Positions 3,595 to 63,051 of a DNA stretch of 64,000 nt are shown in pieces; the first letter of the stretch is position 1; every line of letters begins with the position of its first letter. The stretch lies in the sequence record OP555982.1. The stretch is one strand, 5' to 3'. The notes beneath the pieces are model-generated. The model ran no database searches. It was given only the letters and a program-made list of their open reading frames with translations, and was not told where the DNA came from. The position numbers were made by a program, and so were the translations under genes. This DNA comes from Escherichia phage vB_EcoM-UFV11.

Positions 3595-4795
3595 ATTTTG
3601 TAATAATGTCAAACTGCTCTTTAAAGCAGAAGCTTGAATCTTGGTGCTGATACAAAAATTCATAAGCTTTTTCGCGTTCACGGTCATAAAGAGTTCGGTC
3701 AGATGACAGTTCTTTAATACGTTCAAATGTTGATTCCATGTCATTTTCATCAAACCAAATGATACCGCTATCATGCGAGGTCAAAGGAGTATTATCAACA
3801 CGGAATTTTAAATTTTCGCCTGTAGATTTCCAAAATACCGGAATTGTTCCACATGCACCAAGCTCGAGATGAGTATATTCTAAAGAACGTTGTAGATATT
3901 TTTTGTCCAACTTACTCAGCTGATAACCAAATCCGGATTTACTCATGCGTTCAAGCATTTCGCTATTTACATAACGGTCAAGAATTTGCGTTGGCAAATT
4001 AGGAGCAATTTTAATTTGGTCTACTTGATGAAGACGATAATACTCGTATGGAATTCCTTTTTCTTTAATAGGAATGAACGCTGGAGAACGTTCCAGACCT
4101 TCCATAATAGTACTTAGTCCTGCAGGTTTAAGATGTTTTTCATGAAAATCAAACATCTGATAAAAACCTTTCCACGTAGTAGTACGACCAATCCAACGAT
4201 TGATATTCATGTTAATTTCAGAAACATCTTTCCAGTAGGTTGATCGAACCTTTGCAATATCCATCGGAGGCTGAAAGTTATATACTGTCGGTGCTTCTTC
4301 AATATCATCAAACAGAGAAACTGTTTCAGGATACCATTCTTTCATCAGAACTTTATTAAAATCGCCATTATCAGAATGGCTAAAAATAACATCAGCTCGA
4401 CGAACAGTTTCTTCTAATCCCAAATTTCGACGCAAAGAAAGAGAAGAATGGTCATGTTGATAAACTACAACACGAACAGAAGGTTTAATGTTATCAATAA
4501 TTTTTTTATAGTTATTAATAGTGTCTTCTTCAACTGAAGTAGCAGGAACTGAATTGATAATTAGAATATCACAATCATTTACCAGCTTAAGTGTTTTATC
4601 GTATTCTTTTGCCAATAAAACCGGAATTGAAAATGATTTATAATCATGCGCGCAATTACGAGTAAATGATTTATCTTTAGCATAAACCAAAGTTACTTCA
4701 TGACCATTTTTAATAAACCAATCACGTTGCTCAAGAGAAAATTTAGTTACACCACAACCTTCAAGACCTCGAGCCATAAAAATACATACTTTCAT
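3593..4795 (-). CDS. a-gt: DNA alpha-glucosyltransferase
   Basis: 400 aa, length and sequence character of T4 Agt (hydroxymethylcytosine alpha-glucosyltransferase); position between 47 and 55. Confidence 0.85.
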   Translation of the reverse strand: MKVCIFMARGLEGCGVTKFSLEQRDWFIKNGHEVTLVYAKDKSFTRNCAHDYKSFSIPVLLAKEYDKTLKLVNDCDILIINSVPATSVEEDTINNYKKIIDNIKPSVRVVVYQHDHSSLSLRRNLGLEETVRRADVIFSHSDNGDFNKVLMKEWYPETVSLFDDIEEAPTVYNFQPPMDIAKVRSTYWKDVSEINMNINRWIGRTTTWKGFYQMFDFHEKHLKPAGLSTIMEGLERSPAFIPIKEKGIPYEYYRLHQVDQIKIAPNLPTQILDRYVNSEMLERMSKSGFGYQLSKLDKKYLQRSLEYTHLELGACGTIPVFWKSTGENLKFRVDNTPLTSHDSGIIWFDENDMESTFERIKELSSDRTLYDREREKAYEFLYQHQDSSFCFKEQFDIITK

Positions 4796-4862
4796 TTAAT
4801 ATCCTCTTTGTTTTGGTTTATTTTACCAAAAATTTATAAAGCAATATAGGAGCCGAAGCTCC

Positions 4863-5032
4863 TATCCGCATAATACACCATACAAAGGCTCATTAGAGCT
4901 TCTAAATTTTATGCGCTTATATGTTATAGTTCCTTCTGCTTTAGCTTTATCATGAGACTCTTTAAAGCGTCTCATCATTTCCTTTTTAGAGGAACGAATT
5001 TTATAATCTATTTCAGAAGTCTGGGTGTTCAT
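4863..5032 (-). CDS. small basic hypothetical protein (56 aa)
   Basis: ATG 3 nt after stop of upstream ORF (TGA AAG ATG); followed by hairpin ataggagccgaagctcctat at 4846-4865; below ORF-track cutoff. Confidence 0.3.
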
Positions 5033-11414: not shown

Positions 11415-11884
11415 TTTAAACTCTTTCTAAGCTGCTTCTTAAATGAAGCTATTAATTGTGTTTTAGTGTCAGATTCATTATATTCAAATCCTCTTTGAAG
11501 CATCTCGGCCATCATTTCCTCTTTTCCCAAACGAGAAAATTCCTTTGATTTATCTCCAACAAAGTTAGGGTGAATATTATTTTGGGTGTAATCGGATTTT
11601 AAATAAGTAAGTAAATTTTCTAACCATTCAAGATAATCAACACCTTGTCCCTTTAAGCCAGAACGATTAAATTTATGCTTCATTTGACCTTCTGCGGCAT
11701 TACAGAGATTACAAAGCAATCCACGCACCTTTCCTGCTTTCGGTCCATTTAATTCATGGTCATGGTCGAGGTGATTAGCTTGAACATCAGGATTTAGTTC
11801 TCGTTGGCAAATTAAACATTTACCATTTTGTGCATCATAAAATTTCTGTTTTTCTTCTTTGTATAATTTGCCAGTCAATAACAT
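11411..11884 (-). CDS. 49: endonuclease VII (Holliday junction resolvase)
   Basis: 157 aa, essentially the T4 gp49 sequence (MLLTGKLYKEEKQKFYDAQNGKCLICQREL...). Confidence 0.95.
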   Translation of the reverse strand: MLLTGKLYKEEKQKFYDAQNGKCLICQRELNPDVQANHLDHDHELNGPKAGKVRGLLCNLCNAAEGQMKHKFNRSGLKGQGVDYLEWLENLLTYLKSDYTQNNIHPNFVGDKSKEFSRLGKEEMMAEMLQRGFEYNESDTKTQLIASFKKQLRKSLK

Positions 11885-28621: not shown

Positions 28622-28900
28622 TTATTCTTTAAATCTAATCAATTTATTCATAGACTTTGAAACTTCTGTACGAACCTCATGTAGATTTTTGAGTTGTTCA
28701 AGACGCTGCGTATAGTAAGCAATTTCATCTTCTTCGAGACAGTCCTGTGAATCTTCTTTAAGATAGCGTGCATAGTCCTGGAAAGCGTTACGGATTACTT
28801 CCTGGAAATCATCAAGACTTTGAATTTTCTTAGGAGCAGCAGATACACGACGAGGGGCAGTATAATACTCATAACCAAACCCTGCGCTTAATTGAGCCAT
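28622..28900 (-). CDS. hypothetical protein (vs.x region)
   Basis: internal ATG MAQLSAG overlaps upstream stop. Confidence 0.45.
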
Positions 28901-29166
28901 TAGTATTTTTCCTCTGGTTGGAACACAGCACGACAAGCCCACATACTGGCTTCTTTGAGTTTCGTTTTAGCAATAGTTAACTGATCGAGGCTTTCGGCGT
29001 AATTCTTCGCGAGTTCATCATCTTCACAGCTATCAAATGCTTCCCAAAATTCATCGTATAAAGCATCAAAGATAAGTCCTAAACGAACTTCAGCGTCTTT
29101 AATAGCATTTACTTTACCGATTTTTTCGTCGGTATGTGGCTTATAACCTTTAATATCTTCAATCAT
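28900..29166 (-). CDS. small helical hypothetical protein (88 aa); position compatible with T4 vs.4
   Basis: [45 protein letters not shown]...; start 4 nt after upstream stop. Confidence 0.45.
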
Positions 29167-29380
29167 ATTTGACTTCCTCACCAGTACATAAATCGTATTC
29201 AACTAAACGAATAGGTTCATGAATGCCATATCCCTGAACAGAAATTTCTGTCGTAGGATAAATTCCATCAATATCACCCATATTCCAGGCTTCGTTAAAT
29301 TGCTGTTCGCCTGAATTACTAAACCACTCGGCGAAAGCATTTAGCACATCTTTAGAACCTTCAATAATTATCTTTGCCAT
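29159..29380 (-). CDS. small acidic hypothetical protein
   Basis: 73-aa ORF, start overlaps upstream stop. Confidence 0.5.
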   Translation of the reverse strand: MAKIIIEGSKDVLNAFAEWFSNSGEQQFNEAWNMGDIDGIYPTTEISVQGYGIHEPIRLVEYDLCTGEEVKYD

Positions 29381-29742
29381 TACAAACTCTCGGTAAAGGT
29401 ACGAGCGATAACGTCGCGCTGCTGTTCCGGAGTCAGAGAGTTAAAGCGAACTGCATAACCGGATACACGGATGGTCAGCTGCGGATATTTTTCCGGATGC
29501 TTAACTGCATCTTCCAGAGTTTCACGACGCAGAACGTTAACGTTCAGGTGTTGACCACCTTCAATTTTAACTGTAGGCTGTTGCTCAATTTCAATTTCAC
29601 GGGCATGCAAACCGTAGAAAATTTCTGGGTCTACAAAAGAGTCCTCTTTAAAAGTTTTAGAGACAATAATTCGTGCTTGAATACCATCTTCAAAATAAAT
29701 AGTACCTTTATGCGTGCCTTCAAGAATTTGATATGCTTTCAT
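29380..29742 (-). CDS. autonomous glycyl-radical cofactor (GrcA/YfiD-like)
   Basis: 120 aa; C-terminal about 60 aa [59 protein letters not shown] matches E. coli GrcA as recalled; local GC near 50%. Confidence 0.8.
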
Positions 29743-29749
29743 ATAAACC

Positions 29750-30079
29750 TCAATTAGAAAATAAATTTATCCAAGATTGTTCTTTAATTAAAAATGGCTC
29801 AGAATCATATGCCATTAAACTCTGCGTGATTAGTCCTTTAAAAGGTCCATCAATAAATTCCATGGTAAAATATGGAATTTTATTCATTAGCCGTGCGTTA
29901 GGAGCAGTACATAAAACTCTGCATCCTTTGAATACGCCTTTTTGTAATTTGTATTGCTTAGGATAAAATTCGCTCAAGACGTTGTTATTTGCCAAAATTT
30001 CAAAATGATTCACCAATTTATTTTTAATAGTTTTTGGCGAAAAATAAAGATATTCGAAAAGTTGCGTGTCTGTCATCAT
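29750..30079 (-). CDS. hypothetical protein translationally coupled to upstream P-loop gene
   Basis: ATG ATG overlaps stop of the upstream ORF (CAATGATGACA); about 109 aa. Confidence 0.5.
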
Positions 30080-30615
30080 TGCATTCCGATTATGAAAAAC
30101 TGTGGACGAGTAATACCACCAATGCAACATTTAATATTACAGCAGCAGTGTACAGTTTCAATATGGACACTATAAATCTTATCCATATCAGGAGATTTGA
30201 CAGGTTCATCAATTATATACAAAATTCGCGAAAGCGATAAACCTCTGAACTTGCTTCCTTTATTACCAATAAAACTGCGCACAGAATCAGCAAATAAACG
30301 AAAACGTATATCATCATTAGAATAACGCGAAAATTCCTTTTTAATGTTATTTGAAGAAATTTTAGCGTAAGCTGAAGTATTAGAAAGAACAATAACTGTT
30401 CCGCCATCATACAACCAATTAGCGGCAAAATTAGTTACTGCAGTTGATTTACCGGATTGACGTCCACCATCTAGTCGAAGTGTGCAATACTGCTTAAGTA
30501 AGTCTTCAAATGGTGGGATATAATCGTTTTTACAAATTTCTTCTACTCTAGCGTCAGAATGGTGTGTAAAAGCATTCATCAGGGATAGATAAGGACCAGT
30601 TAAAAATGTTCTCAT
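30076..30615 (-). CDS. P-loop NTPase (small ATPase/kinase-like)
   Basis: about 179 aa from MRTFLTGPY; Walker A DGGRQSGKST, Walker B-like ILYIIDEP, C-terminal Cys cluster HCCCNIKCC. Confidence 0.55.
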   Translation of the reverse strand: MRTFLTGPYLSLMNAFTHHSDARVEEICKNDYIPPFEDLLKQYCTLRLDGGRQSGKSTAVTNFAANWLYDGGTVIVLSNTSAYAKISSNNIKKEFSRYSNDDIRFRLFADSVRSFIGNKGSKFRGLSLSRILYIIDEPVKSPDMDKIYSVHIETVHCCCNIKCCIGGITRPQFFIIGMQ

Positions 30616-30768
30616 TTTATTCTCTCTAAATTTGGGCCATTCCATGGCGCATGAATTGTCCATTTCTGTATTTACCCATTACCGCACTTGGGCTCGACCT
30701 TATTACAGGTTGGCGGGAATCCCTCACAGAATCATGAGGTCCAGCTTGTTCCCATATTTCTTATTTGC

Positions 30769-31242
30769 TTATTTGAATGATTTAACGTACTGAATAGAAC
30801 CTTTACTATTCACAAAGGCAATTTTACCATTTTTGTTATACATAGTAGCAGTACGTTGATAGCCATAAGTTTGTTTACCAGATTGATAACCAACTAATGC
30901 GAAATTATCTTCACCCATTTTATTCTGTTTAGCGCGAATGCGTTCATGACCATGTGCCATAAGAACCTTAGCATCACCAGTTGCAATGGACCGACGAGTT
31001 TTTTCATCTTCAACTGTATTAACAAAGTCGTCAAATGAATCAAATTTAGCATGAGATTTATTATACAGTTTTCCATCTACTGCATAATTATATCCTTGTA
31101 CATCCATCTCAACTTCTGTACCATCATCTAATACCGCAGTAATTTTCTGTCCTTTTTTAAATTTCAAAAGATCAGTAAAAGATTCAGCAATAATTTGAGA
31201 ATTAATAGCTGCTTCAGTAATAAATTCTTTATACGTTTTCAT
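30769..31242 (-). CDS. internal (head-packaged) protein with capsid-targeting leader
   Basis: 157 aa; N-terminus MKTYKEFITEA (T4 internal-protein leader, prohead-protease site after ITE). Confidence 0.65.
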   Translation of the reverse strand: MKTYKEFITEAAINSQIIAESFTDLLKFKKGQKITAVLDDGTEVEMDVQGYNYAVDGKLYNKSHAKFDSFDDFVNTVEDEKTRRSIATGDAKVLMAHGHERIRAKQNKMGEDNFALVGYQSGKQTYGYQRTATMYNKNGKIAFVNSKGSIQYVKSFK

Positions 31243-31258
31243 GTGTATCCTTTAATTT

Positions 31259-31576
31259 TTATTCTTTAGGGAAGTTTTTAGAATATGCATCATAAAGCTT
31301 ATTTCCAATACGGCGGAAAACTCTAGCCGCAAAACGATTTTCTGGGTTTTTAATCATGATTTGCATCATATAAGTACCCGCGTCAGAAAGAGCTTCTTCA
31401 TAGTACCCGTTAATTTCTTTAAGAGTCCTACGTTTACCACCAGGACCATCAACAGTGATTTTCCATTTACCTGTAGAAGTGCGACTTGGCGGTTCAACTT
31501 GTTCAATCCAGATATAACCGCCTTCTACACGCTGTCCTGCAACAGATTCTGCAATAAATTCTTTATACGTTTTCAT
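31259..31576 (-). CDS. internal (head-packaged) protein with capsid-targeting leader
   Basis: 105 aa; N-terminus MKTYKEFIAES. Confidence 0.65.
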   Translation of the reverse strand: MKTYKEFIAESVAGQRVEGGYIWIEQVEPPSRTSTGKWKITVDGPGGKRRTLKEINGYYEEALSDAGTYMMQIMIKNPENRFAARVFRRIGNKLYDAYSKNFPKE

Positions 31577-36163: not shown

Positions 36164-36239
36164 TGGTCGAGGCAGTAGGGATCGAACCTACGACCCAGGA
36201 CTTAGAAGGTCCTTGCTCTTCCTTCTGAGCTATGCCCCG
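36164..36239 (-). tRNA. tRNA-Arg (anticodon UCU)
   Basis: manual cloverleaf: acceptor CGGGGCA/TGCCTCG, T-loop GGTTCGATCC, anticodon loop CUUCUAA, encoded CCA. Confidence 0.8.
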
Positions 36240-36243
36240 TAAT

Positions 36244-36319
36244 TGGGGTGACCGATGGGAGTCGAACCCATGACTACGAGAATCACAATCTCGAGTTCTA
36301 CCAACTGAACTACGGCCAC
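36244..36319 (-). tRNA. tRNA-His (anticodon GUG)
   Basis: acceptor GTGGCCG/CGGTCAC, T-loop GGTTCGACTCC, anticodon loop ATTGTGA, encoded CCA. Confidence 0.7.
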
Positions 36320-36433
36320 ATTAATACCTACTCCAACAATCATGATGTCTTCACACGAAATTAAGAGAAGAGTGATCAGTTCAACCCCTATAATCGCGTC
36401 AAGTAGATATTAATGTGACAGTTGTCACAAATT

Positions 36434-36508
36434 TGGCGGACGTGATAGGATTCGAACCTATAACCAATCGCTTAACAGGCGATCGCTCTGCCATTGAGCT
36501 ACACATCC
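36434..36508 (-). tRNA. tRNA-Asn (anticodon GUU)
   Basis: acceptor GGATGTG/CACGTCC, T-loop GGTTCGAATCC, anticodon loop CTGTTAA, encoded CCA. Confidence 0.75.
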
Positions 36509-36512
36509 AAAT

Positions 36513-36599
36513 TGGTGGGGAGTGATGGAGTCGAACCACCCGAGTCGCAATGACAATGAATTTACAGTCCACACCGCTACCTCTACGGGATAACTCCCC
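36513..36599 (-). tRNA. tRNA-Tyr (anticodon GUA), class II with long variable arm
   Basis: 87 nt; acceptor GGGGAGT/ACTCCCC, anticodon loop CTGTAAA, T-loop GGTTCGACTCC, encoded CCA; anticodon stem has G-U pairs. Confidence 0.6.
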
Positions 36600-36605
36600 T
36601 TAATT

Positions 36606-36680
36606 TGGTGGCCCTGGGTGGAATTGAACCACCATCTGGCGATTATGAGTCGCTTGCTTGAACCTTCCAGCTACAGGGCC
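36606..36680 (-). tRNA. tRNA with CAU anticodon (Met, or Ile if position 34 is modified)
   Basis: acceptor GGCCCTG/CAGGGCC, anticodon loop CTCATAA, T-loop GGTTCAATTCC, encoded CCA. Confidence 0.7.
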
Positions 36681-36681
36681 T

Positions 36682-36757
36682 TGGTGCTGATTGACGGAAT
36701 CGAACCGCCGACATCCTCATTACAAGTGAGGTGCTCTACCTACTGAGCTAAATCAGC
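36682..36757 (-). tRNA. tRNA-Thr (anticodon UGU)
   Basis: acceptor GCTGATT/AATCAGC, anticodon loop CTTGTAA, T-loop GGTTCGATTCC, encoded CCA. Confidence 0.8.
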
Positions 36758-36762
36758 AAAGC

Positions 36763-36852
36763 TGGCGGAGGCGATAGGATTTGAACCTATGAATCGCCGG
36801 AGCGACTGCCGGTTTTCAAGACCGGTGCATTAAACCACTCTGCCACGCCTCC
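36763..36852 (-). tRNA. tRNA-Ser (anticodon UGA), class II
   Basis: 90 nt; acceptor GGAGGCG/CGCCTCC, anticodon loop CTTGAAA, long variable arm, T-loop GGTTCAAATCC. Confidence 0.8.
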
Positions 36853-36854
36853 AG

Positions 36855-36928
36855 TCTCCATACAAGGATTTGAACCTTGGACCTCCTGATCCCAAATCAG
36901 GCGCTCTACCAAACTGAGCTACACGGAG
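36855..36928 (-). tRNA. tRNA-Pro (anticodon UGG)
   Basis: anticodon loop TTTGGGA, T-loop GGTTCAAATCC; CCA not encoded. Confidence 0.75.
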
Positions 36929-36938
36929 TAAATTAAAT

Positions 36939-37012
<74 letters not shown>

Positions 37013-37017
37013 AAATT

Positions 37018-37104
37018 TGGTGCGAGAAGTGGGACTCGAACCCACAAGGAAATCATTCCGCAGCATTTTAAGTGCTGTGCCTTTACCAATTTGACCATTC
37101 TCGC
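37018..37104 (-). tRNA. tRNA-Leu (anticodon UAA), class II
   Basis: 87 nt; acceptor GCGAGAA/TTCTCGC, anticodon loop CTTAAAA, long variable arm, T-loop GGTTCGAGTCC. Confidence 0.8.
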
Positions 37105-37105
37105 G

Positions 37106-37178
37106 CTGGGAATAAAGGATTCGAACCTTTGCATCTAGCAGTCAAAGTGCTATGCCTTACCAACTTGGCTAATTCCCA
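37106..37178 (-). tRNA. tRNA-Gln (anticodon UUG)
   Basis: acceptor TGGGAAT/ATTCCCA, anticodon loop CTTTGAC, T-loop GGTTCGAATCC. Confidence 0.75.

Positions 37179-59910: not shown

Positions 59911-63051
<3,141 letters not shown>

Follow-up and report, generated by a model that had tools for sequence, protein, structure and literature searches.

Orthologues of the T4 early genes vs.8 and vs.7 beside the denV slot of Escherichia phage vB_EcoM-UFV11, and a covarying RNA motif in the vs.8 leader

In bacteriophage T4, the genes vs.6 (GrcA-like), vs.7, vs.8, denV, ipII, ipIII and e follow one another in this order. Both early RNA and early protein have been reported for T4 vs.8 and vs.7 (PMC9697503, supplements). 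A 2026 preprint calls the vs.8 product uncharacterised and ATPase-like, with homology to the ATPase domain of the terminase, and reports that it is toxic on co-expression with the terminase sensor EcAvs2; its authors suggest that non-terminase activators of Avs2 may be anti-defence proteins (bioRxiv 10.64898/2026.04.30.721860). Here we analyse the corresponding locus in a stretch of 64,000 nucleotides (nt) from Escherichia phage vB_EcoM-UFV11 (record OP555982.1; the window), for which a preliminary description had reported a coupled P-loop NTPase gene and partner gene "where denV is expected". We show that the two genes are orthologous to T4 vs.8 and vs.7 and keep the usual vs.6-vs.7-vs.8 synteny; the pair is already known and catalogued, and is ordinary. 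No denV was found beside it, and the leader of vs.8 contains a covarying RNA motif. Our explanation as a whole, in which the vs.8/vs.7 identity, the absence of denV and a proposed function are combined, is held with good confidence.

Both genes are encoded on the minus strand, as are all genes in the region. The vs.8 orthologue (30076-30615, minus) codes for a stand-alone P-loop ATPase domain of the RecA-like, terminase type, which is 89% identical to T4 Vs.8 over 179 aa (tblastn, E=5e-118) and matches PHROG 1488 (E=1e-78) at profile positions 2-177 of 177. The vs.7 orthologue (29750-30079, minus) codes for a protein of 109 aa that is 98% identical to T4 Vs.7 and matches PHROG 2049 (E=5e-54). 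The surrounding 2 kb (29300-31300) match Escherichia phage vB_EcoM-UFV09 and three sister isolates at 100% identity, and PP01, AR1 and many other Tequatrovirus genomes at 96-97%. In PP01 and AR1, this place is annotated as vs.6, vs.7 and vs.8, so that the tentative label "vs.x-type pair" in the preliminary description turns out to be apt. The same synteny, with vs.8 upstream of vs.7 and vs.6 and downstream of the internal-protein/denV segment, is found in T4, PP01, RB69, a Klebsiella phage and a Serratia phage. Altogether, 1009 records of Vs.8, 929 of Vs.7 and 1119 of DenV were found.

The two frames are joined by an ATGA stop/start overlap at 30076-30079 (minus), seen directly in the sequence, where the TGA of vs.8 overlaps the ATG of vs.7 within GGAATGCAATGATGACAG (string CAATGATGACA). 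An ATGA or TAATG junction is retained in most of about 42 loci, across genera, and the coupling persists down to 34-37% identity. At its other end, the vs.8 open reading frame (ORF) of 179 aa opens with MRTFLTG, and an alternative reading of 195 aa starts from the ATG at 30663. Because homologues of all genera begin at M(R/K)(T)FLT, the 179-aa start is, judged by these alignments, the correct one. A putative Shine-Dalgarno region with the AUG of vs.8 (AGAGAGAAUAAAAUG) is read from the sequence at 30613-30627 (minus), and this start position is kept in homologues.

Searches with T4 DenV (tblastn, word size 2) and T4 denV (blastn) found no such gene in the window or in three loci covering the remaining UFV09 genome; UFV09 serves here as a proxy for the rest of the genome, identity having been established over 29300-31300. 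The sole weak match to DenV lies at 11426-11572 (minus), in the C-terminal part of gp49 endonuclease VII (gene 49), where a stretch of 49 aa aligns with DenV residues 56-101 at 41% identity (E=0.001). This stretch is not a denV gene; the local likeness between the gp49 C terminus and DenV is known from the literature. Apart from it, the results agree with the preliminary description, which had recognised no denV-like sequence in the window and had proposed the tblastn search of the phage with T4 DenV. In an alignment of the window with T4 and PP01, homology to T4 restarts exactly past the denV stop codon. The junction where T4 has denV consists of 12 nt (30757-30768, minus) between the stop codon of an ipIV-like gene and the RNA motif, and ip10 and ipIV occupy the place of T4 ipIII-ipII-denV. 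The gene is thus absent because the lineage carries an ip10-ipIV cassette between vs.8 and gene e, and the vs.8/vs.7 pair, rather than standing where denV would be expected, adjoins that slot in its own usual place. At least 309 phage records cover at least 80% of a 2-kb query spanning the denV-less junction, and the presence or absence of denV is ordinary cassette variation in the segment between vs.8 and gene e. The T4 v-gene function has long been known to be absent from T2 and T6.

The features that had first drawn attention to the 179-aa protein, a Walker A motif, a Walker B motif and a C-terminal Cys stretch, are all present. The Walker A motif DGGRQSGKST covers residues 49-58 (30442-30471, minus), of which D49, G50, G51, R52, Q53, S54, G55 and K56 are invariant in 19 homologues. 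The Walker B motif ILYIIDEP covers residues 131-138 (30202-30225, minus), with I134, I135, E137 and P138 invariant and D136 conserved in at least 90%; Glu137, which follows the Walker B aspartate, is the putative catalytic residue. Two arginines and a C-terminal F-F-x-I-G-x-Q are also invariant or nearly so among homologues. The Cys cluster HCCCNIKCC (residues 156-164; 30124-30150, minus) behaves differently, being a lineage-specific, low-confidence loop near the C terminus: the homologue alignment shows between 0 and 5 Cys at this position, and residues 160-168 have an AlphaFold2 pLDDT below 50. A Zn or Fe-S site of the family is ruled out by this lack of conservation and low model confidence.

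Vs.8 is a single RecA-like P-loop domain. As far as sequence motifs can tell, its closest relative belongs to the T4-type large terminase gp17, namely the ATPase subdomain at the N terminus. In a profile alignment with the window's own gp17 (610 aa, encoded at 61216-63048), GGRQSGKS aligns with SRQLGKTT, an RG segment with VRG, and ILYIIDEP with MIYIDEC, so that the Walker A motif reads GRQxGKS/T against SRQLGKT and the Walker B motif IIDE against YIDE. Beyond the computed alignment, the C-terminal G-M/T/V-Q of Vs.8 presumably corresponds to the gp17 strand that carries the TTT coupling motif. Vs.8 has the hallmarks of a T4-type large terminase P-loop, that is, Arg-Gln within Walker A and a Glu after Walker B, and reaches the large terminase profile phrog_2 of PHROG with E=2e-6. 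It is, however, without the ATPase subdomain II and the RNase-H-like nuclease domain of a functional large terminase, since it stops at residue 179, just past the last core beta-strand, and it scores 14.1 bits against Pfam Terminase_6N, for which the cut-off is 22. Otherwise only AAA_14 and AAA_30 appeared in Pfam, both below threshold; NCBIfam gave no match, and a profile search of the PDB gave E>=0.06 at best. The families named for a profile search in the preliminary description (AAA, KAP, PhoH-like and nucleotide kinases) yielded no significant match, and AAA+, KAP, PhoH-like and nucleotide-kinase assignments were ruled out, as no profile passed.

The Vs.8 family is small. One search among 5.8 billion proteins gave 27 clusters, and a profile search of 1.84 billion representatives gave 50 proteins at E<=0.001, most of them stand-alone proteins of about 130-190 aa, together with two longer ones and a few fragments. 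As a source of functional clues, the precomputed Pfam fields were blank for every match of the first search. A Foldseek comparison with viral models found Vs.8-like mini-ATPases of 145-175 aa in many large phages. In T2, vs.8 is matched in three pieces (record PV958097.1, 43063-43595, hit H77), and BFVD holds two T2 Vs.8 fragments of 57 and 110 aa (A0A386KE76 and A0A2Z5WKZ0); the T2 gene appears to be split or frameshifted.

Vs.7 consists of two N-terminal helices and a small SH3/KOW-like beta-barrel. Its core, Y-x-F-x-x-GPF...EFI-x-GP-x-KG-x-x-x-x-SL-x-x-YD, is present in the UFV11 protein (alignments A5 and A6), and this core of about 55 residues is all that other genera retain, with the N-terminal helices replaced or missing. 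The family is assigned to PF26834, an assignment precomputed on homologues, the local Pfam copy being one without a PF26834 model.

Upstream of vs.8 lies a non-coding leader of 150-250 nt that is conserved at the nucleotide level in loci where Vs.8 identity falls to 37-43%. In the window, it contains a pseudoknotted RNA motif of 106 nt (30651-30756, minus), recognised by the covariance model (CM) R1 with 73.6 bits (E=3e-17); this copy is the single one found by CM in the window and the three UFV09 loci searched. The motif comprises helix H1 (30749-30753/30715-30719, minus), helix X (30742-30744/30666-30668, minus), helix H2 (30734-30739/30722-30727, minus) and the H5 hairpin (30697-30710, minus), and its core, CCUGUAAYAAGGUC...GCGGUAA, is near-invariant. 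A further small hairpin, GCCAUGGAAUGGC, stands between the motif and the vs.8 ribosome-binding site (30636-30648, minus) and is kept in nearly all leaders. RNAalifold on a plain MAFFT alignment of 25 leaders predicted helix H1, with compensatory changes in all four of its pairs, and a hairpin ACCU-GUAAYA-AGGU. Helix X is long-range: a segment inside H1 pairs with a segment past the core, which creates the pseudoknot. Complementarity between X and X' is far higher for cognate than for non-cognate partners, and none of 5000 permutations reached the observed value. For the full pseudoknot, the MAFFT alignment has 88.6% of its cells paired and compensatory changes in 11 of the 22 pairs; the covariation score is 0.325, whereas shuffles give 0.133 (none of 500 attains the observed score) and sliding the partners gives 0.03-0.10. 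A model-based alignment of 44 hits raised this to 13 of 22 pairs, including 4/4 in H1, which had been left out of the model behind that alignment. G-U pairs indicate that the RNA is read from the vs.8 strand. Single-sequence folding of the leader was uninformative (z=0.17), and simple scans of the locus for sigma-70 promoters and terminators remained at chance level.

That the motif is real and structured we regard as very probable, and we lean, with more reserve, towards its being previously undescribed as well. Rfam 15 gave no match overlapping it (E<=1 in the window and T4-like loci, E<=0.1 in the distant loci described below), ARAGORN detected no tRNA or tmRNA in the leaders of five T4-like loci, and a literature search for the core sequence found no paper.

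The leader has nevertheless been annotated in part as protein-coding. T4 Vs.8 (NP_049732) is recorded as 219 aa, with 40 extra N-terminal residues read through the leader RNA (4794-4913 in the T4 locus L003, corresponding to 30616-30727 in the window), and a 33-aa ORF annotated in UFV09 (UXR08741.1) likewise reads through the motif. In the window, the codons of the T4 extension lie in a frame other than that of vs.8 and run into a stop ahead of MRTF, as the extension frame also does in other Tequatrovirus loci (e.g. L011); in RB69, the leader frame carries a 1-nt indel. A coding leader is excluded by these stops, by the RB69 indel and by the compensatory substitutions in the helices. The T4 extension is probably an annotation artefact permitted by a small T4-specific insertion, and the UFV09 ORF looks like an artefact too.

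In enterobacterial T4-like phages, the motif has settled between the denV/internal-protein cassette and vs.8, and in about 38 of 42 loci vs.8 follows it directly. In four loci (L027-L029 and L037), an ORF intervenes between the motif and vs.8, and the hairpin GCCAUGGAAUGGC stays beside vs.8. Two tandem, diverged copies were observed upstream of vs.8 in each of three loci (L020:2213-2449, L031:2220-2455 and L064:307-543). Pattern scans covered 185,579 bacterial and archaeal genomes, where they found no copy, as well as metagenomes, with 20 copies, and viral contigs, with dozens. Among these, 23 copies are from phages of other kinds (a 360-kb contig and a Pseudomonas pf16-like one are examples), and neither Vs.8 nor Vs.7 is encoded in their fetched flanks. 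A strict H1/X/H4 model fits all 23 with differing helix sequences, at scores of 26-40 as compared with means of 3-15 in shuffled flanks. Most of these distant copies share their strand with tRNA genes and sit within or next to tRNA clusters. For instance, in L110 (the 360-kb contig) the motif begins about 38 nt past a tRNA-Glu gene, and in L096 it begins a few nucleotides past tRNA-Ser. A terminator-like hairpin with a T-run comes after the motif in L096 and also in L065. Another phage contig, L114, carries an abiF RNA at 3624-3655 (minus; RF03085, 45.4 bits, above the gathering score) in a tRNA cluster near its copy of the motif, a hint that phage tRNA clusters carry conflict-related small RNAs.

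What Vs.8 and Vs.7 do can be proposed from motifs, neighbourhood and mimicry. We infer that Vs.8 binds and probably hydrolyses ATP and that it forms a complex with Vs.7, which would be made by translational coupling and would probably serve as its stoichiometric partner or adaptor; Vs.8 should be unable to package DNA. Made early, it may be a decoy for, or a modulator of, those host systems that sense terminase-like ATPases. Orthologues of vs.3 and vs.4 were observed at 28622-29166 (minus), just downstream of the vs.8-vs.5 block, and Vs.4 is Acb2. With these genes just downstream, the vs.8/vs.7 pair heads an anti-defence gene cluster. Vs.3 has been identified as TadIV-1, an anti-type IV Thoeris sponge (PMC13243611). 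From this neighbourhood and the toxicity reported with EcAvs2, we hypothesize, tentatively, that Vs.8 is an early terminase-ATPase look-alike in phage-host conflict, the role that seems most likely. Several points weigh against it: activation of Avs2 would harm the phage, and the conflict role is read solely from neighbourhood and mimicry. The Pfam terminase and AAA matches are all below threshold, the hhalign probability of the Vs.8-gp17 alignment is just 12%, and PADLOC gave nothing significant (just PtuA, E=0.004). The Vs.7-Vs.8 partnership is not obligatory, as Gelderlandvirus-type loci and L043 have no vs.7 after vs.8, and vs.8 would seem dispensable, at least in the laboratory, because the T2 copy looks split.

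Several other explanations of the pair have to be set beside this one. If vs.8 and vs.7 were a single gene broken by a frameshift, or decaying remnants, one could point to the run ATGATGA at which they overlap and to the split look of T2 vs.8. Both frames are intact, however, and collinear from end to end with the T4 proteins, the two-gene layout with the same junction is kept across genera, and both proteins have been detected in T4 infection, which makes a broken gene hardly credible and upholds the preliminary description, where the junction had been called an ordinary ATGA-type overlap between two genes. Scarcely more room is left for the proposal made there that the pair may replace denV, taken here to mean a new UV or DNA-repair module in the denV slot. 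In its favour is position only, vs.8/vs.7 being the first gene pair after the internal-protein genes. In T4, however, vs.7, vs.8 and denV are adjacent; denV also accompanies the pair in RB69 and Serratia phage X20, and neither Vs.8 nor Vs.7 is similar to DenV. The co-occurrence in T4 refutes the replacement, and it is ip10-ipIV that occupies the denV place. The preliminary description had named two findings that would refute its reading, T4 homologues of both ORFs at this position and denV elsewhere in the genome; the former were found and the latter was not.

More room is left for a different biochemical role, the main rival, which we rate about as likely as the conflict role. Vs.8 and Vs.7 may possibly form a small nucleic-acid-dependent ATPase, a 'half-helicase' whose SH3-like subunit binds nucleic acid as in RecD and Dda, acting early on phage or host DNA or RNA in housekeeping or takeover instead of counter-defence. 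The two tandem RecA-like domains with motifs I-VI that define SF2 helicases are not found in Vs.8. A narrower proposal ties the proteins to their own leader: Vs.8, with or without Vs.7, would bind the RNA and regulate its own synthesis, as T4 gp32, gp43 and RegA do, or the motif would be a riboswitch of the vs.8 operon. The position of the motif directly upstream of vs.8 in most enterobacterial loci and a resemblance of Vs.8 to DEAD-box RecA1 domains speak for this, and the motif has the covarying structured domain of a riboswitch. A consistent position in the 5' untranslated region of related genes and an expression platform were not found, and an obvious alternative structure sequestering the Shine-Dalgarno sequence was not seen in the vs.8 leader. 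Moreover, at least 23 distant phage contigs have the motif mostly at tRNA clusters and without vs.8 or vs.7 in the fetched flanks, terminator-like hairpins follow it in L096 and L065, and an ORF intervenes before vs.8 in L027-L029 and L037. Regulation through the leader is thus improbable, and a riboswitch specific to vs.8 is weakened by copies that occur without that gene. The motif is probably an independent, stand-alone RNA module and not a vs.8 riboswitch. With tRNA clusters as its context and anti-defence genes in its neighbourhood, it could be related to tRNA or serve in counter-defence rather than regulate vs.8.

Among the remaining genes around the pair, the vs.6 orthologue downstream (29380-29742, minus), by which the synteny is fixed, encodes a GrcA-like glycyl-radical protein with 98% identity to T4 Vs.6 (Pfam Gly_radical, E=2.5e-18). 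Upstream lie genes for two internal head proteins, ipIV-like (30769-31242, minus) and ip10-like (31259-31576, minus), named after the PP01 annotation and assigned as a pair to PF24183/DUF7412 and PHROG 3155 ('internal virion protein'). They resemble T4 ipII and ipIII solely in the N-terminal targeting peptide MKTYKEFI. Elsewhere in the window, a tRNA cluster at 36164-37178 (minus) holds 11 tRNA genes, with added His, Asn, Tyr and Met, and the T4 cluster holds 8 genes, including Ile. Relative to MZ291552.2, the offset is 32001 at the start of the window and 31902 at 29300; this difference of 99 bp points either to an indel with respect to UFV09 within the first 29 kb or to a sister isolate as the source of the window.

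For the two protein families, the locus changes little, adding one more member to T4 families that have been catalogued for decades. It does bring corrections: the pair is vs.8/vs.7, the Cys cluster is unconserved, and the 219-aa T4 Vs.8 and the 33-aa UFV09 ORF are read through an RNA. The conserved coupling of Vs.7 and Vs.8 suggests that both proteins should be studied jointly, and Vs.8 has lately become of interest as a trigger of the Avs2 sensor that looks like a terminase. The locus also bears out that T-even phages vary in denV and can do without it, and the phage is predicted to be as UV-sensitive as T4 denV mutants. The RNA motif could open something new, namely a widespread, tRNA-cluster-associated phage RNA that is also present in the best-studied phage.

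Compared with known systems, the pair shares only its T4 neighbourhood with the pyrimidine-dimer glycosylase DenV, to which neither ORF has any sequence similarity. The RNA motif recalls rnaC and rnaD of T4, small stable RNAs located where the tRNA cluster ends, which are likewise phage structured RNAs of 100-140 nt tied to tRNA genes. They show no similarity to it, though, the CM being blank in the T4 tRNA/rnaC/rnaD region with filters off, and in T4-like coliphages the motif, unlike rnaC and rnaD, lies several kilobases from the tRNA genes. Vs.8 differs from the protein that carries the ATPase subdomain I it resembles (PDB 2o0h) in size, 179 aa as against the 610 aa of gp17, and in timing, as Vs.8 is early in T4 and gp17 late, the real T4 terminase being a late protein. 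A preprint lists Vs.8 together with Ksap1 and Ksap2, non-terminase activators of Avs2 (bioRxiv 10.64898/2026.04.30.721860); these, too, are phage proteins of small size whose sheet resembles that of the terminase ATPase, and a fit into the sensor pocket of Avs2 is reported or predicted. Closest of all are the T4 proteins themselves: Vs.7 (NP_049731; PHROG 2049; Pfam PF26834) has the same length and position without material difference, and T4 Vs.8, its annotated N-terminal extension aside, agrees in neighbours, leader and overlap with vs.7.

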